Source: Eremomyces bilateralis CBS 781.70 (Eukaryota). From it: a stretch of DNA of 64,000 nucleotides. The stretch's first letter is position 1; each line of letters starts with the position of its first letter. The translations under genes were made by a program, and so were the position numbers. The stretch lies in the NCBI GenBank assembly GCA_010015585.1, contig ML975151.1; one strand, 5' to 3'. Positions 45,964 to 64,000 of this stretch are shown here, one piece after another. The notes below the pieces were generated by a model. That model did no database searches. It saw only the letters and a list, made by a program, of their open reading frames with translations, and had not been told where the DNA came from.

Positions 45964-47197
45964 TTTGAATCGGTCGGTCGTTGCTTGAATGACTGGTATC
46001 GAATGGTTGCAAGAGTTTTTACTTGGTGTCGATGCTCAGTGGCAAAGCTTTTATTTTGATCGAGAGTTGTGTGTTGAGTCGAAACGGAGCACAACAAAAG
46101 ATTTGAGATTAGCGAGAAATCCAAACGTTCGTCTGGAGGCGTCTTCGCAAGAGAAAAGCAGAGTTCCTTAGAAGGCTGCTTTTGCTTAGGATGGAAACGA
46201 AAACGTGTTTTGGTTGGGTTCGTGTTCTCGTCGAAAGGAGAACGAACAGTGGCAATGTCAATCGACGTTCAGGTCGACAGGCAGAAGCAAAGCCCAAGCA
46301 AAAGCACCGAGTGGGGAATAGATCAGACGCAACTTTCCCTGTAGAGACTGACAGGAAAAGCAGAAATGAAAGGAATGAGGAGTATTGAGGTGAATTTTGG
46401 ATGTCGAGGAGAAAGGGTGTTTGGGGAGAGAGTGATGAAGGTTTTGAGAGAGAGGGAGAGAAGTGATGAGAAAGTGCTAAGAAAGTGCTGGTGCAAGAAA
46501 TTTTGGGGATGGCCAGTGGGTACTTTTACGGGGGTTCAGTGTATTGAAAAATACTAAAGTCTTTGCCCCCAAGCAAAATGCCCCTATAATTTTGCCTAAA
46601 GGGGAATGGTCAGTGTCTTAGCTGTCACGAAAAGTGACAAGTCATGTGTTCCAGGCACTTCCAGCCCGAAAGATGCGATGACTTGGACGGTACACTTCAG
46701 CTGAGTTCAGGACAAGCAAGTCGATTACAGGAGGAACCGCCCAGGTACTCAACCGATCTCTCTGAACCGTTGATTGTAATATCTTTGTCCACAAGACCCA
46801 AGACCTAAAGCCTTGTTTACTAACTTATAAAATCGGAATCTATGTATTGTGGACGCCTCTTCACTGTTGAACAGTTCCGCCACAAGTAGATGCACTAACC
46901 AACTGATGGTGTCGCCTCAGTTAGCCTTGGACTCGTTATGACGCCATCTGATGGACTTGTAAAATGTAAATGGTATATCTCAATCACCGTAGTCAAAATG
47001 GAGTCCTGGAAACAAAAAGATCTGCGTCATCATCATCGGAAGCACTTCTTGAAAGTTGAAGCAGTCCTTGAAAGTTGGAACACTCCTTCAAGGCTCTCTT
47101 GCAAGATCATAGGAATAAGGCATCTACGCTTGCGCGTGTGGGACGAGGTTTAAGAAGATCAGGAGTCATCGTTGGTTATTCAAGGAGTCGATATTTA

Positions 47198-51260: not shown

Positions 51261-54217
51261 ATGCCGCCGGCCGGAAAGTCTCAAGCCGACCTCCAAGCCC
51301 AGCGGAAAAAGGTATGGCACAACGCGTTGCTTACTCGACACCGTCCGCTAATCGTATCTTCTCCTATAGCTCATCAACTCGTATCAGGAACTCTTAGAGT
51401 ATGTCCACATCCTTGATAGGTCGCTCTTGTTTGGAAGGATGATGCCTAATGTCTACCCAGGGAATTCTCGAGCGAAGAGCTCCGCAATGTTGGAAACTAC
51501 TCCCTAGGCCGTCTTATCGGCAAAGGATCGTTCGGAAAGGTGTACCTGGCCACTCACAAGCTCACCAATGGTTCCAAGGTACGATGGAGGAGACCCGAGT
51601 GGTATACAATCAAATCACTAAACCGATCTAGGTCGTCCTCAAGTCCGCTAGGAAAGATGACGCGAATCTCGCCCGCGAAATCCACCACCACCGACAATTC
51701 CTCCATCCTCACATCGCGCGTTTATACGAAGTCATAGTCACTGAGAAGCTTGTATGGCTGGTGTTGGAGTACTGTCCAGGTCCGTGTGTATCATTCAATA
51801 TGCTCTTCCAGCTCTGACGAACCGAATACAGGGGACGAGCTCTATACCCATTTGCTGAACCATGGCCTGATGGAACCGTCCAAAGTCCAGCGCATTTTCA
51901 CACAGCTGGTCGGCGCCGTCGCATACGTACACCAAAAGTCATGCGTTCACCGAGATCTAAAACTGGAAAATATACTGCTAGACAAGCATGGGAATGTCAA
52001 GCTGGTCGATTTCGGATTCACTCGGGAGTACGAAGGAAAGTCGAGCTACCTTCAGACTTGGTGTGGCACCGTGTGTTACAGCGCGCCGGAAATGTTGAAA
52101 GGGGAAAAATATGCCGGCGAAAAGGTCGATGTCTGGAGTCTGGGTATCATACTGTATGCGTTGCTATGCGGCGAGTTGCCGTTTGATGAAGATGACGAAA
52201 CCGCTACGAAAACACGAATATTGAAGCAGGAACCGAAATACCCCGACACCCTTCCACAGGGCGCGAAAGATCTGATTGCCTCCTTGCTGTCGAAGCGACC
52301 GCTTCTACGACCATCGCTTTCAGACATTCTCACGAATCCGTGGCTTGCGGAGCATGCGCCTCATCAAGTTCATATCCTCAAACTTCAGCAGCCGGAACCG
52401 TTTTCCACGGAGCTCGAGACGCAGACGCTGGCGAGAATGAAGAGCGCGGGCGTCAGCATTGACATGGTGATCACGCACGTCCTTGAGATGCACTGTGACG
52501 CCTTGGCTGGATGGTGGGCCTTACTGATCGAGAAGGAGGAGCGAAAGGCGAAGCGGCTCGAGCGGAAGCGAAAAGAGCGGGAGGCGGAAGTCAAGAGTCT
52601 ACGTCGATTGAGTGCAGCCAGCAGCCGTCTGGAGCGCATGGCACCAACCATTCGAGAGACGGATGAAGAGGGTCTCCATACCGTCCTGATGGGCGATCCT
52701 CCGAAGTCAAGAGGCCGGAATCCCAATCGATTGAGTTCTCGTAGGTCTACCACTCTTCAAACTTGACATTCGCTAATGCTCTCACAGAAGCCATGGTACC
52801 TGATTTGCCAAATGTTCAAGAGACTTCCGTATCCCCGCAAGCAGAAATTGAAAATTGGCCACCACCTCCCATCGACAAAGATCCGAGGCCTACCCGTCGA
52901 TCCGCCAGTTCATCAAGATCCCGTCCTCCTCTTCCGCCCAAAGAGCGCCGTGTTTCCCGCGGCAGTATGCTTCACCTTGTCACCACCAACGCGGACCTTG
53001 CGCCTTCGAATGGTATTTCCAACAACGGCGCCATCACGAAGCGTCGCAAATACCAACCGCCTCTCCTAAATCAATTCCTACAACTTAAGCACTGGATCAA
53101 GGAGTCCGCCAAACGCACCCGCAGCCCTTCGATTAAGTCATCCAATCCGAGCTCCAAATCCTCCCCGCAATCCCAACAACCCGCCCCTCGCCGCCACAGC
53201 GCCGCGCTCCGTCAAGGCGACCAAATCCACCGTCTCTCCATCACCCGCCCCGCCCCCGAAACCCCCACACGGCTCTCCCGCCCTGACCTCCCCTCGCACG
53301 CCCGCGGTTCAGGCCCTCAGCGCCCGCGCATCACCACCTCCACCACCCCCGTCGGCATGCACGCCAAGCCCCGCCCCTCCCTCTCCCCCTCCCCCATCAC
53401 CCCGCACGCCTCCTACCGGCGCTCCTCCGGCCTCCGCGGCCGCAAATCCACCTCCAGCTCCGTCTCTAGCATCCGCAGCTTCCACCACGCCCACACCCAC
53501 AGCAAAACCAGCTCCACCTCCTCCGCCTCCGCCTCCATCGCCTCCCCCGTAGCCTCCACCGCCCCCGCTGCCGCCGCCGCCCTTCTCGGATCCGGCGCCG
53601 TCCCGCCCAATGTCAACGGCACCAGCGGCAGCGGCTCGACGTCGCCGAACGCGTCGGTCCTCGCACCGTCCGGCAGCGCGGGCGCGAGCGCGACGGGGCC
53701 GTTCGGGCGCGACGGACCAGTGCGCAAGTCGGCGCCGAAGCCGCTGCTGGCGCTGAGCGAGAGCGCAGCGGCGTTTTCGAGCCTGCCGCCGCCGAGTCCA
53801 GGGTTGATTTTCACGAAGCGGAAGCGGAGTCCGTTTAAGGGACCGGTGTTGGGGTTGAGTGCAATGGGGGGGAGTCCGGGCGGGAGGGCGCGGGTGGGGA
53901 GTAATGAGGGGAGTCGAAGTGGGAGTGTAGGGAGGAGGAGTGGAGAGGGGGTGATTGAGGAGGAGGAAGAGGAGGGGGAAGACGGGGAGTTGGTAGAGGA
54001 TGTGGACGAGGATGGAAGTGGGAGTGTGATTGTGAAGGGGGTGGGGATGGGAGGGATGGCGTTCCTCGGCGAGGAAGAGGATGAGGAAATCGAGGAAGTG
54101 GACGTGTTTAGTCCGGTGCAGGACGGGGAAGAGGTGGTGGTGGTCGAGCCCGGGGAAGATGTGGAGGAGGCGATACGAAAGGAGAGGGAGAAGGCAAGGA
54201 TGGCGGCGAAGGTGTAG
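51261..54217 (+). CDS. CAMK-like Ser/Thr protein kinase (Ppk16-like), multi-exon
   Basis: NVGNYSLGRLIGKGSFGKVYLATHKLT, VVLKSARKDDANLAREIHHHRQFLHPHIARLYEV, HRDLKLEN, DFG, CGTVCYSAPE; long S/P-rich C-terminus with RGRKSTSSSVSSIRS; several short introns. Confidence 0.88.
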
Positions 54218-56550
54218 CGAAGGACCTGGCATGCGATACGTTGTTGTACTATTCTGAGCCCCTGGGAGGGGACATATACCCTGTTTTGGTGTTCTTCATT
54301 TGTTCCCCCCCTCCGATCCCTTTGTCACTTCTCTTCTACCGTATGTTTTTACGTCCCTAATTATTCGGGGTCAAGCGAGTGTCAGTCTACCCATCCTGTC
54401 TACGGCTGTATCACCTTTTGTTTATACCATAAGATAATCCAATTCTGAGAGCTTGCAGGTCTATCCGATTCTCGCTGCTGGCGGTGAGAGCGAGAATCTT
54501 CGCTCCCCACCGCTACCCTCCGCTGTTACACCAATAAATAGCACAATTGGCCATCCCCACCACGTGTGTAACGCCTGGATACGATGTTCTCTAGGGTTGG
54601 AAATGGCGGTGCGGTCGACTGCTGGGTCCCCAAAGTGATCAAGTGTGCGAGAACTCTGGATCGCAGTCGGTCCTTAAGGTACTCAAGCACATTATTGCTA
54701 CACCTTTCGTGATGTAAGGCACTATGATGCCGTTAAAACACAGGGCGCCCTGATGAGATTACTGGCCTCGATGTTACATCCGCTGATCCGCATAATCTCG
54801 TGGACCCGGAAGGATTCTATCGGCTGCCGCCCTTGGTCGTACAACGTATGTGAGCGTGCTGGCCACTGTCGATCGGTCAAGCCGCAACGAGATTTCTCCA
54901 TTCGTGGGCGGAGCCAGGCGGTCGCTCCAGGCAAAGTTCATGGGCAATGATCGAATGATGTTTGCGAATAAAATGACTGGTGCGACTTCAAGCCGTCATT
55001 GGAGAATCCCACAAAGCAAGGACGCCATGCCTTCCCGACGATACGTCCCGTCCGCAGCAATAATGCCTTAAGAATTGATAATCGACATGATAAAAAGGTG
55101 TCCAAGCGAGATTGGCAACGTCCGAGTCCTTAAATATGTCTACCTGCATGCAAGTATTTCTGTACAACATGTAGGTCGGTGAAGTTGTATTGTCTCAGAC
55201 TCGAAGAACAATGTCAAGTCGTCAACTGACCGGCGAAGTAAGGATGCCCCTTTCATCCTCTTCATAGATCTACTTTGGGAAACCGTATCCCGTACTTCCT
55301 CTTCGTCTTTATCGATAGTACCTGCTTCTGATGTGGCCTTTTCCAATGATATCCCGTCTTAAGGTCGCTCAACGGCTGCAAGTAAGCAGCCGTCCCGCAT
55401 CAAGTCCCCCGAGATCGCACCGTTGAGCTAGGAAATATGAAGAGAACAACGCTGCTTGTTCAAGTATCGAAAAAGCGCCATCGCAAAACAAGAAAGCAAT
55501 GTTGCACGACGTATCCGTATATTCGCTCTCATTGGACCCTACCGGCATCATCCCTTGAATCCCTTCGCCATCCCACCCCAGCGAGGATCTTCCCGTGTGA
55601 GCGTTGAGCTGTGGGCAATCAACTAGGCAGGGCAGTCCTGGGGACGATGGGGTTCCCATATTGGGCAGGTCGGTGCAACGGAGCAAGGCTTGTATCCCAT
55701 GAGTTTGCACGGCTACACGAAACTGAGGCCAGGGAAGGGGATAGCTTCGATGGCGGCATAAATACGAAAGGAAATCGGGTTCGTGATCCTGTTCCTACAG
55801 GATTAGTCTCATTGTCCAGTCCATTCACTTCGCATCGTCTGCAAGGAATACATAAAGCGGTGGTTGTGTGCTTCCACTTTGGACTGTCATACCACGCCGT
55901 ACACCTCGCCGACAACTGTCAATTCATTCAAGTCTATCCAAAAGCTGCAGTGTCATTCATCATCTCAAATCATTCCATAACCCCTTCAAAAAAGTTACAT
56001 CAAATCCGACGATCAAGTTCTAGCGTCTCTTTTTGTCCACACTTTTTCGCTTCTGCCAAAGCAACCCTGGTCTCACGTACCAATAATAGCTTCTGATAAC
56101 CATCGGCCCCGTCACTCGGCAGCTCCACTGACAGCGGGGATTGACTGACCCTCGCCCGGTCCTATCGCCAATCTAAGCCGACGACGCCGTGCCAAACTGC
56201 CAATAAATCCTACCTGGCCTCCAGCGTCGCCACTATCTCACAGGCTGGCCCGAGTCACCTCGACCGCTTCCCCATATCCAATTCCACTCGTCTCGAGGAT
56301 TCCGATTTCACTCCATAAGACTTGGTCCCTGCCGGCGACCATGACGAGATCCTACAACTGTTCCCACGATATCTGATCCCAAGCTACCCTCTGCGCGAGC
56401 CGGAACTGCGAAGCGGAACTCTCGTGTGAGGAGTCGACCGCTAGAGGGAAATCTTAAGGTCTAGGATAAGACAGACGAAGGCAGAAGCAGCCGGCTCGAC
56501 AATATTCACGGCTATCGGTGAAAGAGGTGGAAGGAGGCTTGCCGGCGATC

Positions 56551-58466
56551 ATGGACTACAATGACCGAACAATCAATATGAAGATGTACACACCGTCCTC
56601 CACCGAATCGCCCAGAAGAGCCTCACTTCCTCCCGACTACCTGGCATATGAAGGTGACACTAGAGACCCAAAGCTTCCCTTATCCCGGCGCATCATCGAC
56701 AGTTTCAAAAGAGACCCGGCACATGTCCACACCATCACACCACGGGGAGCAGTAGGTAGCGATGGGAAGTTGTTCGACGTCGAGGGCGCTGCTGAGGCGA
56801 CGGCGACGTCGCCTTTATTGCGGAAGTTGAAGGGAAGGCATTTGCAGATGATTGCAATCGGAGGCTCAATAGGTGGGATAAACATATCTGGAAACCCGTG
56901 GATGCATCGGCTGACTGGATCCAATAGGAACTGGTCTTTTCGTCGGATCAGGAAGTGCGTTGGCACAAGGTGGCCCAGCTTCATTATTGCTGGCTTTCTT
57001 GTTGGTTGGGATCATGATGTATTGCACCGTCCATGCTCTGGGGGAAATGGCGGTGCTCTTCCCCGTCGCTGGATCCTTTTCCGCATATTCCACGCGGTTT
57101 TTAGATCCAGCCTGGGGGTTCGCCATGGGTTGGAAGTATGTGTTGCCCCAAGTCGGTCTTAACCAAAGACATCGCTGACTTCCACAGCTATGTCCTCCAG
57201 TGGCTCGTCGTTCTACCCCTCGAGATCGTCGCCGCCTCGCTCACCATTGAATTTTGGAATCATGGCAGGATCCACAGCGGTGCCTGGGTTGGCATCTTCC
57301 TCGTCCTTATCGTCATCATCAATCTTTTCGGGGTCAAAGGCTACGGTGAAGCGGAATTCGTTTTCAGCATTATCAAGATCACCGCGGTCATCGGCTTCGT
57401 CATCTTAGGCGTTATCCTCAACCTGGGCGGGGGTGAGGACGGCTCCTACATTGGCGGTCGCTACTGGCGCGATCCTGGCGCCTTTAATAATGGCTTCAAA
57501 GGCCTCTGCTCCGTCTTCGTTGTTGCTGCCTTCGCCTTCGCAGGGACCGAACTGGTTGGCCTTGCTGCCGCCGAAACCGCGAATCCGCGTAAATCACTTC
57601 CGACCGCGGTTAAGCAGGTCTTCTGGCGTATCACCCTCTTCTACGTCGTCTCCCTTCTGCTTGTGGGGCTACTCGTCCCCTACAATGATGAGCGACTCCT
57701 TGGGAACCCCGAGCTCTCTATTGACACGAATGCCTCGCCTTTTGTCCTCGCCATTCAAAACGCTCGCATCGAAGGCCTCCCCTCCGTCATGAACGCTGTA
57801 ATCATGATTGCGGTCCTCTCCGTTGGCAATTCATCCATCTACGGCAGCTCGCGCACATTGGCCGCGCTCGCCGAGCAAAACCAAGCGCCGCGAATTTTCG
57901 CCTATATCGACCGACAAGGTCGCCCCATCGTAGGTATCGGCCTCGCGTCCGCACTCGGCCTGCTCGCCTTCCTGGCCGGCACCAACCGGGAACAGGACGC
58001 CTTCAACTGGATGCTCGCCATCTCGGGCCTATCCAGCATCTTCACCTGGGGCTCCATCTGCCTCGCGCACATCCGCTTCCGCAAGGCGTGGAAGGTGCAG
58101 GGCCATACGCTCGACGAGCTGGCGTTCCGCAGCCAACCCGGCGTGATCGGCTCCTGGATTGGGTTCATTTTCAATGTGCTCGTCCTCATCGCCCAGTTCT
58201 GGATCGGGTTTGCGCCGGTGGGATACGCCGACAAGACGCCGCGCGAAAACGCCGAAGCTTTCTTCTCCGTCTATCTGGCCGTTCCGATCGTCATCGCGTT
58301 CTATCTGCCGTACAAGTTGTGGCTGCGCACGAGAGTCGTGAGGAGCCATAATATGGATCTCCATACCGGGATTCGAGAGCTGAATCTTGCAGAGCTCGTG
58401 GCGGATGAGAGGGCGGAGAGGAAGTCCTGGCCGAGATGGAAGCGATTCTACAAATACTTCTGCTAA
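56551..58466 (+). CDS. GAP1: Amino-acid permease (YAT family, Gap1-like), 3 exons
   Basis: RKLKGRHLQMIAIGGSIG/TGLFVGSG, FLDPAWGFAMGW, VKGYGEAEF, FAFAGTELVGLAAAETANPRKSLP, multiple TM helices, terminal FC. The ortholog assignment within the family is tentative. Confidence 0.88.
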
Positions 58467-59120
58467 TGAAGCTGTAGCGTCGAATACTTGTTCTCTCGCC
58501 TAGTTGGCTATTTAGGTTTGGTTTTCGGTCTTTTCGAGTTTTGATGAAACGAGCGTAATGAGTTATGGCGCATGTACAGGCTGATGGAGCAGTCTTCCGC
58601 TACTAGATATGGCCAGGATTTTTCGGCGATATGGGTCTAAGATCATGGTATGACACGCCCCAACGATGGATGACGCTTGATATGGGACGATTCGTTTAGA
58701 CGATCCGACCGGACCTCATTTTCCGGCTTTGTTATCGGCTAACGCATGTACGGGAGAGGAATAATTAATAGTACATCCCTCAAACTCATAATATCTCTAA
58801 AGGAAAACGGGGATCAGTACTGCCACCATAGACAGTGATTGGGAGTCAGTACGTTTGCAATATATTGTAAAATTGATCCAATGGAGTGTCCGACGCCTCT
58901 CTACCAACAAGCACCGAGTTTACTGTCAACGTGAGAGTAATCTCGAGATTTATCTCCTACCTTTCATAGAAAGACTCGTTCTGTTCAAAGCAGAGGCTAT
59001 GCGAACCTCTCCCTGATTCAGTCGTACCTGATCCACTTGGGATCTAGGCCATCATCCACTGCGCTCTTTATGTTCTGCTAGTTCTGCACGGCATCCTTCA
59101 GGGTTTTTGTAACAGACATG

Positions 59121-59255
59121 TCATGCTTCCTTCACATGACAGTCGGGGCACTTGTCCATATCAACCAGTCGCTCTTCTTTCTTGCATTCGCTACCCTTCC
59201 GGACGAAGTTGTCACGGTTGTGAGCACAGGAGTAGTCGATTTGGTAACGACATAT
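59121..59255 (-). pseudogene. Small Cys/His protein paralog with ATG>ATA start loss
   Basis: caacaATA TGT... reads (I)CRYQIDYSCAHNRDNFVRKGSECKKEERLVDMDKCPDCHVKEA*, same Cys/His spacing as the intact copies. Confidence 0.6.
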
Positions 59256-59523
59256 TGTTGTGACCACTGGTGGTTTGGGTCGACTCACTGCAGGGGGAAA
59301 CGCTTGTCCAGTGCTAATGAGGCAAGAAAATGACTGTTGAGGCGTCGGCTATAGTCCTACACTAACAAGCAGGAGGATTGCGAGATAATTATACTCTAAT
59401 GCGAGTCATCCATTGACTGGAACTCCATTCCCATGCTAGACAGTCTGTACCCTTTCTCGCAATGTCACTGTGACTCGGTGCTTCCTTTATCTATCAGTCC
59501 CTCAGAAAAGTGCCCAGGACTTC

Positions 59524-59750
59524 CTAATCTTCCCAGGCGTATTCATACATATGCTCCACATCAGTGAACCAGCACGCCTCTATACGGCAGGCTTTTACTA
59601 GGCACAAATGGAATGGTTTCTCCAGATTGTCGTCGCAGAGATGGGACTTTGATTCATCTATCAGCTCCCCAGGTTGTTTACAGTCGCAGTTTTCCTGCAC
59701 GAGGAACCGCGTGGGGTGGAGCAGGCCCATTGGATTATTTAGTAACACAT
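59524..59750 (-). pseudogene. Small Cys/His protein paralog with premature stop and 1-nt frameshift
   Basis: ATG TGT TAC TAA ATA ATC CAA TGG GCC TGC TC/CAC... gives MCY*IIQWAC(S)HPTRFLVQENCDCKQPGELIDESKSHLCDDN. Confidence 0.5.
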
Positions 59751-60314
59751 CGTTATCGTTTCAGGTGTGGGGATCGATGGTAGGTTTTGGAACCGACTTG
59801 CTGGTATACTAGGGTCAATGGGAGGTTCGATCAGTGAATGTGCCAGTCTGAGTAGTGCCTGTCATGACTGTTGTCCCTGAGTTTTTATACCTGGCCATTC
59901 TACGTTTCTCCAGATACTTTGTCCTAGTTATACTGGCATTCCGGTAGTCATATCTTGGTTTTACATGTGCGTGTGGGGCTATGACTGTCTGTGATGATGA
60001 GTATTCCAATATTTAGGCACTTCAAGTGAGATTACTTCCAATACACGCGAACCTTTATTTTATTCTTTCAGGAGAAAAGTCCTATAACACAGTATTAAAT
60101 CTTCCAGATAATTAACTAGCAAGCACCGAGCTACATTCACGTAATCATCAATTATATTTCTAATTGTCCATTGGCCACACTCACTAGCACTGAACCTACT
60201 TCCACACAGACAGAGTTCTTCCGTACACTACCACCCTCTAGATCCAACTTATACCGCATAACAAATAAGTCCTGGATATTCTGAGCCAGTACTCCGAACC
60301 AGTCACAAAGAAGA

Positions 60315-60539
60315 ATGTGTTATTCTATGGTCTTCCATCGTTGCGGACATCGGTTCAATACAGATCAATTGACTCGCTGCGCGTGTCACAACTTTGCCAG
60401 CGCCATGGTTGATTATTGTGATGATTGCATAAGAGAACGGTCAAATCTCCACAGAATCTTGAAGGGACCCACCAATGGGGCCACCAACGGAACCATTCGG
60501 GAGGCAGTCAACGGTTCCCAAGGGTTCCCAATGGTGTGA
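60315..60539 (+). CDS. Small Cys/His putative zinc-binding protein (74 aa)
   Basis: MCYSMVFHRCGHRFNTDQLTRCACHNFASAMVDYCDDC...; A at -3 of the ATG; motif shared with neighbouring paralogs. Confidence 0.65.
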   Translation: MCYSMVFHRCGHRFNTDQLTRCACHNFASAMVDYCDDCIRERSNLHRILKGPTNGATNGTIREAVNGSQGFPMV

Positions 60540-61404
60540 ACCACACAGCGTCCAATGATAGACCTAGTTCTACTTCGAAGACTTGATTGACTTATCAATC
60601 GTGGGGACCGACTTGGATCAAATGGGATTTGACAAGAATGGAAGGATTACACAGGCACTGGGGCCTCAACAATGCTTTATACCTTCTATTTCAATACTGT
60701 AGTCCGGGGGATGGAGAGCAATTCTAAGTCTCGGATGTTAAGCTCAATTATTCAAGTTTAAATCGATACTGAGTAGCACTAATATGACTAGTCCCTAGAG
60801 GTGAATCCAAGTTCTATAAGGCACCGTGTGGGCATAGTGTGAGGGGAAATTAAAATACTTCAAGCCTGATCACAGTGATCTATATCTAAATATGACTTGG
60901 CTAAACAAATAATACGGTATTTAAGCCCCTTAGGTCCTTCTGTAATGATTGTCAGTGCTGCTGCTCCATACGAACTGAATTTCGATGACGATCAAAGTTA
61001 ACATTATTGTAAACGAGTGAAGTATTTTTTTCTTGATCATATAATTACGTGTAGGAACTGCTAGGAGTCATGCTGGATCATTTTTGTTAGAGTCCCAATT
61101 GTCCCCCAGGATATGGAAGAGTCACAATCTGCTAGCATGATTTACCTTCTCCGAAAAGAGGCATAATGTTATGTCGCTCACAGAGGGCGGTAGAATTTAG
61201 TATCAGAATATTCCCATGCAGTTTGGGGTTGACAAGATTAAGTTGCTATTTCATCCTATGAGATACACCATCGATTACATGTGATCAGCTGTCCCATTTC
61301 GACACCATAATCTTCTCCATATTCAGCCTCCTATTGGCTTTCATGAGATACAGTAGGATTGGAAGCATCCTAATACAGGTCTTCAATATCCGCGGAGACT
61401 TGAC

Positions 61405-61566
61405 CTATCTTTGCGTCTCATCATTATCACCATATACCTGTTTTACGGGCGCACAAATGGAACATAGCCTGGCTCTAATGATATCCATATCGCTCTTGCA
61501 TGGACAGGTTGGGTGGCGGGCATCTTCCTTGTGCCCACACTCATACGTGACGTGGAAGTCGCACAT
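61405..61566 (-). CDS. Small Cys/His putative zinc-binding protein (53 aa)
   Basis: MCDFHVTYECGHKEDARHPTCPCKSDMDIIRARLCSICAPVKQVYGDNDETQR*; preceded by a pyrimidine-rich leader. Confidence 0.65.
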   Translation of the reverse strand: MCDFHVTYECGHKEDARHPTCPCKSDMDIIRARLCSICAPVKQVYGDNDETQR

Positions 61567-62498
61567 CGCGGCAATGAAATCCTGGGGTATTAGAGTCGGG
61601 GAGCTGAGTACGCGAGAACGTGAGAGGTGCTTGCTGAATAAGGATCCAACCACTGCGGGTGCCGAGCAAAAGGTATATGTACTCCTTAAAGTGCAGGTGG
61701 TGGATGCTGAAGCAGCGAAAGTAGAAGGAGAGTGGAGTTTCATGACTTTATAAGAGCCAGTCGAGGATGTGAAGAACTTAAGGGCAGGTATGACTTTTGC
61801 AGTGACTTCCGTCAATGACTCACAATGGATATCATAATTAACGAGACATAGGATTTGCGACTCATTGGGACTCTGAACAAAAGCTCGTGATATGCTTCCT
61901 TCACAGACTTGGGTGCAGCATCTAGAGTTGAGGTCACAGTCCATATGGCATTTTACAGAAGCATGATTTCTCGACAACACATTTGGATTCGAGTTGGCTA
62001 TAATGATTGTTTGCCAATGACTTAAAACCATCGGAATAAGTCGGCGGACATAGAAAGCTCGTTCTCCCTAATTGAAATCGAATTCGAAAGACAGGCGGAT
62101 AAATGTGACAGATACGTACTCAGTACGGAATATAACTGGACCCCATTCAGGGGAAGATCAGCAACGAAGCGAAAAGCTCGTGAGTTCTGAGTGAGTGAGA
62201 CTGTGAGTGAGTCGCGCTCAGTCAGCATGGTCCAGCGGACGGCAAGCACTAACAATGTCGATTCTGGGGATGGGCTCCATTATTGTCTTTGAACCCCCCA
62301 ACGTGAAAATCGCTTTCATTCATCAAGTCTACCGGTATTGAAACGCCCAGCCCACTTGTCCTTGGCCTCATGATCCGAGGTCAACAATAGGAGTTTCTTC
62401 CATGACTAACTAAGCTGTGTTCGAGGGGGCACGGCAGTCCGGTCTCCTTCACAGCTGATGTAACAGATAATCGGCTTGCACTGCGCCTTTGGCAAGCC

Positions 62499-64000
62499 AT
62501 GACACGACGATTGGTGCGCATGCTCGCCTCCCTGGAATGGAGGATCGTGGGATATCGGCTAACTGGAGGATTTTTAGGTGCGCGCAAGCGTCAACCTCGG
62601 GGTACTCCTCGTCGTTATCCTCACCCTTATTTTCTTCCTCGACAACCGCTACCGAGTCCTCCCCAACTCCATCCACAGTCACCTTCCCCTCCACCACCCC
62701 GGCCTCGTGATCACCGACCTCACGATCAAGACCTGCAACAAGGCCAACCCATTGTCATCATGCCGCCTCGACCCAGATGAATGGCACCGCATCGAGAAAG
62801 ACCTTTACCTCGGATCCAGCTGGACCAAGCAGGCGTTTGTGCACATCCGTTCCGCGCGCGAAGAGGAACTGGGCCTCAAAGATATGGTTGTCATGGACGT
62901 GCGGGTGGGGAGGTTGGATCCGTCGGTGGGTGAAAAAGGGCAGGAGAACCAGAAATGGGAGTCCCGGCCGGGCGGCGTGTGGATCAAACTCAGTTCCAAG
63001 CGGCATGACAGCGATTCCAAGAAGGCGGTCACGGCGGTGGAGGTGCTCTTCGGTGCCGATGCGGCCGACCCGCGACCGAGCTGGGAGCTCAAACCACCGT
63101 TATTGCTGGACATGTCGTTAGAGGCGGCCACCCCTCGACTCACTGTCCAAAGAGGTTCAACTCCAAGAACTATTGAGAAGCCCACTCCTCGCGTGCGGAG
63201 AGACGGGCGGTTCAAGATCATGCAGGTGGCCGATATCCATTTCAGCACGGGAATGGGCGCGTGTAGAGACCCGGAACCGCCGGAACCGCATGGTGGAAGG
63301 TGCGAGGCGGATCCAAGGACTCTTGAGTTCCTCGGCAAGATGCTTGACACGGAGAAGCCAGACTTGGTTATCTTGAGCGGTGACCAAGTGAATGGCGAGA
63401 CGGCACCGGACGCACAGACCGTATGTATCCCGTTTGCGACGATTGTCAGATGGGCGCTAACAAGCAGCCAGGCCATCCTAAAGTTCGCGGATATCTTCAT
63501 CCAGCGCCAAATTCCGTTCGCAACCATATTTGGAAACCACGATGACTTTGAAAAATCCTCCCTCTCCCGCCAAGCGCAGATGTCATTGATCCATGCTCTA
63601 CCCTTTTCGCTCAGCGAGGCTGGGCCGGCTACCGTCTCCGGCGTTGGCAACTACTACGTCGAAGTTCTTGCGCCCGGCACCAGCACGCACTCCGCGCTTA
63701 CCATCTACCTCCTCGATTCCCACGGCCACAGCGGGAACGAGGGCTACGACTACATCAAAGAAGACCAAATCAAGTGGTTCAAAGCTACCTCCCGCGCGCT
63801 GAAAGATCAGCATAAGAAATATACCCACATCCATCTAGACATGGCGTTCATCCACATCCCCCTCCCCGAGTACCGAGAGGTCGGGAAACCGGTGCAAGGC
63901 TCCGTGACGGCGGGCGGGGACGACCAAAATAATGGCCAGGTAGTTTTCGGCGACTGGAAAGAGCCCGTCATGGCGCCGAATAAGAACACGGGTTTCCGCG
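62499..64000 (+). CDS. DCR2: Calcineurin-like metallophosphoesterase (Dcr2-like), 3' end outside the window
   Basis: MTRRL/VRASVNLGVLLVVILTLIFFLD (TM anchor), WHRIEKDLYL, FKIMQVADIHF, LVILSGDQVNG, IFGNHDD, LLDSH, AFIHIPLPEY; introns near 62514-62577 and 63421-63471. Confidence 0.88.

Follow-up and report, generated by a model that had tools for sequence, protein, structure and literature searches.

The spacer between an amino-acid permease gene and a Metallophos (DCR2-like) gene on contig ML975151.1 of Eremomyces bilateralis CBS 781.70 raises the question of whether a group of very short open reading frames (ORFs), which share the spacing of their cysteine and histidine residues and little else, represents a family of genes, the wreck of such a family, or a coincidence. 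The window analysed is the whole stretch of 64 kb, to which all coordinates refer, and the census of copies is a census of this window and not of the genome. Four copies of one small ORF make up a cluster at 59121-61566. A sequence-only reading had proposed at least four short ORFs with a common Cys/His spacing at this locus, and the four that it listed were all recovered in place. The best reading of the cluster, which is held with about even confidence, is that it is a lineage-restricted family, probably of metal-binding microprotein genes, undergoing birth-and-death turnover. The copies, referred to below as A to D, are the following:

60315..60539, + strand: copy A, intact, 74 codons plus stop, hidden Markov model (HMM) score 69.2
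61405..61566, - strand: copy B, intact, 53 codons plus stop, HMM score 68.1
59121..59255, - strand: copy C, decayed, HMM score 64.1
59524..59750, - strand: copy D, decayed, matched by a frameshift-tolerant DNA pattern

The protein of copy A starts with MCYSMVFHRCGH, which is followed by nine residues, CAC, ten residues and CDDC; its ligand pattern is M1 C2 C10 H12 C22 C24 C35 C38, after which comes a low-complexity tail of 36 residues. The protein of copy B starts with MCDFHVTYECGH and continues with eight residues, CPC, eleven residues and CSIC, giving the pattern M1 C2 C10 H12 C21 C23 C35 C38. Copy C reads ICRYQIDYSCAH ... (S)EC ... CPDC, with ATA in place of the start ATG, 30 open codons upstream that include no in-frame ATG, and AGC (Ser) at the first Cys of C-x-C, the remainder of the pattern being intact. 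Copy D starts MCY*IIQWAC, with a TAA stop at codon 4, and one base has been lost in codon 11, between C10 and H12, producing a frameshift beyond which the copy reads H, nine residues, CDC, fourteen residues and CDDN, where AAT (Asn) occupies the last Cys position. The lost start, the stop, the frameshift and the lost ligands in C and D are typical of copies of a coding gene that have been released from constraint. The architecture common to the copies is M-C-x3-[VI]-x-[YWH]-x-C-[GAS]-H, followed by x8-9, C-x-C, x10-14 and C-x-x-C. In all four, the first Cys immediately follows the start codon or former start codon, and the base at -3 is a purine; in A, C and D the frame is closed by a stop that precedes the MC start by 8 to 31 codons.

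The possibility that unrelated short ORFs have come to share this cysteine spacing by coincidence can be evaluated by comparison with shuffled DNA, a check which the sequence-only reading had itself named and which its pattern withstood. The strict pattern has two matches in the window, both inside the cluster, and none in 100 dinucleotide shuffles. A looser version, C-x7-C-x-H ... C-x-x-C, has three matches against a shuffle mean of 0.04, and the frameshift-tolerant DNA pattern matches A, B and D against a shuffle mean of 0.0, none of 200 shuffles containing a match. What speaks for coincidence is that the search pattern was set post hoc, from inspection of the data, and that the E-values of single BLASTP comparisons between copies are merely 0.009 (B against A), 0.012 (B against C) and 0.29 (A against C). 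Against this, every copy lies inside 2.5 kb of the 64-kb window, and there is agreement that does not depend on the pattern at all, both in the motif found upstream of the copies (see below) and at positions 6 (V, V, I, I) and 8 (H, Y, Y, W), which lie outside the pattern and are consistent in 4/4 copies. The explanation by chance is close to refuted. A match at 55134 (+) to the N-terminal part of the pattern alone was inspected and dismissed as noise, and an HMM built from A, B and C detected no additional copy in the six-frame translation of the window.

The copies have diverged to the point at which their pairwise protein identity is 23-32% and the DNA that flanks them gives no alignment between copies. 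What has been retained across copies consists only of the Cys/His positions, the start codon and two hydrophobic or aromatic positions; in A, B and C the invariant residues are C2, C10, H12, one Cys of C-x-C and both Cys of C-x-x-C. The ligand codons are mixed between copies (TGT or TGC, CAT or CAC), and because the ligands are spelled with differing synonymous codons, it is the residue and not the DNA that has been retained. Since neither the flanks nor the non-ligand residues can be aligned, the ligand residues were kept through selection on the protein: neutral drift of such duration would have destroyed both the ligands and the reading frame, a process that is under way in C and D. Judged from these comparisons, the copies are very probably true paralogs of a protein-coding ancestor, with Cys and His residues that were under selection during most of their history. 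By the same comparisons, local duplication in both orientations enlarged the family, and divergence followed. The sequence-only reading had described fast-evolving paralogs subject to birth and death, and with two intact copies, two decayed copies and mixed orientation, birth-and-death turnover is a fair description. Repeat-induced point mutation was considered as a source of the divergence and of the AT-richness and was rejected, the ratios TpA/ApT (0.74) and (CpA+TpG)/(ApC+GpT) (1.24) being the same as in the rest of the window.

Copies A, B and C are each preceded, in the direction of coding, by a short motif with the core AAGCACC, and a further copy of this motif is present nearby:

60118..60130, + strand: upstream motif AGCAAGCACCGAG of copy A, 194 nucleotides before the start codon
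61626..61635, - strand: upstream motif AGCAAGCACC of copy B, 66 nucleotides before the start codon
59474..59486, - strand: upstream motif AGGAAGCACCGAG of copy C, 228 nucleotides before the former start
58906..58918, + strand: further motif copy AACAAGCACCGAG, with no recognisable ORF copy downstream

The further copy, at 58906-58918, is situated just past the point where the permease transcript ends. A degraded version of the motif, AGCAAGTCGG, is found about 55 nucleotides upstream of copy D. The exact 10-mer AAGCACCGAG occurs four times in the 64 kb, three of these occurrences being in the cluster (58909 +, 59474 -, 60121 +), and AGCAAGCACC has two exact matches, both within the cluster (60118 +, 61626 -). 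The motif may act as a regulatory element shared by the copies, or it may represent a conserved leader. The fourth occurrence of AAGCACCGAG, at 46302-46311 (+), is 12 kb away, downstream of another gene.

The copies are orphans in the sense that no relative is detectable with the tools used. The sequence-only reading expected most of these ORFs to escape gene callers, in agreement with which the exact sequences of A, of B and of a 208-residue form of B (described below) are absent from about 15 billion predicted proteins. A search of Pfam-A with A, B and C (E-values up to 10) produced a sole match, of Zn_ribbon_15 (PF17032) to copy A, which at 11.5 bits and an E-value of 0.55 does not reach the gathering cut-off of 28.9 bits; at the same limit, the zf-CSL, Zn_clus, Copper-fist, metallothionein and CDGSH models matched none of A, B and C, and no Pfam family matched the 208-residue form of B. 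Word-index searches for homologues yielded zero candidates with A and B, and 108 candidates with the 208-residue form, none of them at E <= 10. A HMMER search with the profile of A, B and C against 1.84 billion representatives gave four hits at E <= 0.001, all of which were rejected as relatives: they are long proteins (381-2003 residues), each scored across five matched stretches, and they consist of sushi-like repeats, low-complexity sequence and bacterial repeat proteins. The single hit of a PDB sequence search (E 0.95) was likewise rejected. A metagenome scan with the back-translated strict pattern found 20 loci, none of them credible (they were TG-microsatellite frames or had internal stops or out-of-frame gaps), and this null result is limited by the fact that the share of fungal DNA in the collection is not established. 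In the ESM Atlas, copy A reached 0.85 to three clusters of Ascomycota hypothetical proteins of 65-82 residues and copy B reached 0.81 to mixed clusters, both values being below the tool's level and providing leads only. Nothing on the motif or on such a family was found in the literature searched.

The null results of the homologue searches are weak, because so short a module, about 40 residues of which seven are fixed, approaches the limit of detection in libraries of billions of sequences, and the lack of relatives is thus weak evidence against the reading of the cluster as a microprotein family. Hypothetical proteins of filamentous ascomycetes often start with Met-Cys and carry a C-G-H knuckle, and the cluster may therefore belong to a wider, unnamed family.

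Comparison with known systems gives a mixed picture. The CSL-type finger of DPH3/Kti11 has four Cys arranged as C-x-C ... C-x-x-C, and the predicted proteins are like small zinc-ribbon and zinc-knuckle proteins in that they are small, show no signal peptide by eye and contain C-x-C followed by C-x-x-C (C-P-C ... C-S-I-C in B). They differ from the CSL-type finger in that the knuckles are 10-14 residues apart and an extra N-terminal C-x7-C-x-H comes right after the start Met, and they differ from known zinc fingers in that Pfam offers only Zn_ribbon_15 below its cut-off and the PDB offers no sequence match. Fungal metallothioneins, such as the Neurospora-type copper metallothionein, are tiny cytosolic proteins with C-x-C motifs that bind metal, and the predicted proteins are similarly tiny, contain Cys in C-x-C and would have a metal-related role. 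In metallothioneins, however, Cys makes up about 20-30% of the residues and aromatic residues are few or absent, whereas here Cys accounts for 6/53 residues (11%) in B and 6/74 (8%) in A, which is outside the metallothionein range, and aromatic, hydrophobic and His residues are present, two of them conserved, with the aromatic position 8 kept. Because of this low share of Cys and the conserved aromatic and hydrophobic residues, the sequences look like a folded module rather than a thiolate cluster. The spacing of the fungal Zn2Cys6 binuclear cluster, C-x2-C-x6-C-x5-12-C-x2-C-x6-8-C, is unlike the C-x7-C-x-H-x8/9-C-x-C-x10-14-C-x2-C found here, for which Pfam gives no Zn2Cys6 hit.

Clustered fungal effector families are taxonomically restricted groups of small cysteine-rich genes that undergo birth and death. 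The present cluster is like such families in its local duplication, its mixed orientation and its extreme divergence outside the Cys scaffold, and also in that pseudogenes stand beside intact copies at a locus which is not shared with a relative; it is unlike effectors in its His ligand and in the obligatory Cys at position 2. No hydrophobic core is visible by eye in the N-termini of A and B (MCYSMVFHRCGH and MCDFHVTYECGH), which to that extent agrees with the earlier statement that a signal peptide is absent; if it is absent, the proteins would not be secreted by the classical route. They may be intracellular. The cluster is similar both to small zinc-ribbon or zinc-knuckle proteins and to lineage-restricted families built on a Cys scaffold, yet it fits none of the family definitions against which it was compared (Pfam, metallothionein composition, Zn2Cys6 spacing).

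According to the mechanism proposed for the cluster, the spacer would hold a small lineage-restricted family of microproteins of about 45-75 residues, in which the N-terminal part, a conserved module that spans about 38 residues and contains six Cys and one His, would be a compact metal-binding fold. The ligand residues would bind a metal, most likely zinc, although a 3Cys-1His iron-sulfur site is a possible alternative: the C-x-C and C-x-x-C knuckles would build one tetrahedral four-Cys site, and a second would be formed, or completed, by Cys2, Cys10 and His12. Once the copies had arisen by local duplication, they diverged at all non-ligand positions and in the C-terminal tails. C and D are dead, and A and B keep the start codon, the open frame and the seven ligands; at least one of A and B would still be made, and the variable surface and tails would give binding partners specific to each copy. 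The odds that at least one of the two intact copies still works as a gene are judged to be even.

Several results weigh against this account. The codon log-likelihood ratio per codon is -0.070 for A and -0.063 for B, scores which are equalled or exceeded by 66% and 62%, respectively, of null ORFs outside genes (n=109), and GC content at third codon positions is 0.54 in A and 0.53 in B, compared to 0.72-0.74 in the flanking genes and 0.61 in the five long training ORFs; as evidence, the codon usage of the two copies is neutral to slightly unfavourable. The AlphaFold2 models, computed from alignments of three rows, have values of the predicted local distance difference test (pLDDT) of 47.6 and 37.7, so that both are of low confidence and unusable, and because of these low values the fold and the pairing of ligands are guesses; in addition, seven conserved ligands fall short of two complete four-ligand sites. 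In run X4, which comes from a related genome in which the flanking genes are roughly 80-85% identical, a single contig connects 58444 with 62489 through 1689 unrelated letters, where the window has 4044. The cluster is therefore not conserved there as DNA at an identity of at least 80%, and the spacer is a lineage-specific, fast-changing site. A final point concerns copy B, the product of which may differ from 53 residues because its frame is open for 220 codons.

The setting of the cluster, and the RNA-like sequence that touches it, are given by the following features:

57138..58466, + strand: left flank, last exon of the amino-acid permease gene (PF00324, E 3.4e-123)
62578..63999, + strand, open at the window end: right flank, Metallophos (calcineurin-like phosphoesterase, DCR2-like) gene (PF00149, E 2.9e-10)
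61222..62135, strand not determined: two thin X3 contigs, 61222-61452 at depth 5.65 and 61697-62135 at depth 6.09

The spacer is 3.5-4 kb long and is bounded by these two + strand genes. A spliced X3 contig of the permease extends to 58850, and the X3 contigs of the Metallophos gene, which has an intron at 62512-62577, start at 62423. Because four short GT..AG introns (51-64 nucleotides) of the flanking genes are spliced out in X3, X3 holds RNA-derived sequence and the genome is that of a fungus-like eukaryote, although none of the sequencing runs is recorded as RNA and the RNA label of X3 is a guess. The two thin contigs sit on either side of copy B and leave most of its ORF uncovered, and their depths compare with 214 for the permease contig and 830-1416 for the Metallophos gene. 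Among the X3 contigs listed, none falls in 58851-61221, the part that holds A, C and D, which is uninformative on expression. GC content is 41-49% in the spacer and 53-60% in the flanking genes, and none of eight other stop-free spacer fragments has a Pfam match above the cut-off. Within the permease gene, other contigs of X1 and X4 match only short conserved pieces (57086-57135, 57612-57644 and 58041-58093), and these contigs presumably represent paralogous amino-acid permease genes elsewhere in those genomes. Further away, at 53000-54000, the GC content is very high (0.66-0.70) and the GC skew strongly negative (-0.50 at 53000-53499), within long open frames that overlap on both strands.

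The frame of copy B contains no stop for 220 codons (61408-62067, -), a length reached by 1/500 shuffles of the spacer, and an ATG at 62031 in this frame gives a protein of 208 residues (62031-61405). Such a run favours the explanation that the module is part of longer proteins, as a domain or an exon, either because B is the C-terminus of a 208-residue protein or because A and B are first exons that are spliced to unrecognised exons downstream. The two thin X3 contigs would bracket a transcript of this kind, and the eleven ATGs between 62135 and the MC start of B would hamper initiation at that start if the transcript began near 62135. What makes the explanation improbable is that the frames of A, C and D are closed a short distance upstream of MC by the stops noted above, that ATG or ATA exactly precedes the first Cys in 4/4 copies, that the 155 residues upstream of MC in B have neither a Pfam match nor a homologue and a codon score of 0.009, and that no contig spans an intron here. 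Those upstream residues contain Cys-rich bits, for example C-x7-C at ...CLVNYDIHC..., which could be a still older fused relic. On the other strand, 61262-61753 (+) is a 163-codon stop-free stretch, antisense to copy B and its extension and without a Pfam match, which probably arises as a side effect of the long open frame that faces it.

If the module is taken as a separate small protein, it may nevertheless be one that is no longer made. All four copies could be dead, A and B having merely not yet been disabled and the cluster being the wreck of a family that was once functional. This explanation, which is rather unlikely, is favoured by a codon usage in A and B that cannot be distinguished from that of random small ORFs, by the absence of their exact sequences from the predicted proteins and of any relative found, by the clear breakage of 2/4 copies, and by the different, shorter spacer carried by the related genome of X4. 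It is opposed by the retention of the start, the frame and the seven ligands in A and B, which differ from each other nearly everywhere else and must therefore have been under selection over most of their separate history, as well as by the retention of the upstream motif at A, B and C and by the thin RNA-like contigs on either side of B. The sequence-only reading had gone further in the opposite direction and likened the cluster to loci for effectors, antidotes or allorecognition. A selfish or conflict locus of this type (effector, poison-antidote or allorecognition), diversified in an arms race, has a general resemblance to a cluster that is hypervariable, of mixed orientation and turning over, and the locus does differ in the related genome. 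This likeness found no backing in the spacer, however, since no partner gene is present and none of its stop-free fragments carries a known conflict-system domain; a signal peptide is absent by eye, and relaxed constraint predicts fast divergence equally well, so that a conflict locus is very improbable.

The reading of the cluster as a lineage-restricted microprotein family can be taken a step further, into a version which is speculative and is considered doubtful. That the first Cys always comes straight after the start Met suggests a role for a free N-terminus. The fold could then be one that is built on an N-terminal Cys, in which, after removal of Met, the amine and the thiol would complete a metal site together with Cys10 and His12, with a second site of C-x-C and C-x-x-C behind it. 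Such proteins, with their own conserved upstream element and a fast local birth and death, would constitute an undescribed fungal microprotein family that serves as a hypervariable intracellular binding scaffold or as a metal-responsive switch, and that gene callers have overlooked.

If neither A nor B yields a protein, the locus is unremarkable, a group of lineage-specific genes in decay. If at least one of them does, the locus would represent a family of Cys/His microproteins that standard annotation and every profile library used here have overlooked. The locus is compact and can be deleted, and it has built-in controls in its two dead copies and its shared upstream motif. Should the microprotein reading be true, the cluster would be a small, tractable case in which to study the origin, diversification and death of short metal-scaffold genes in fungi.

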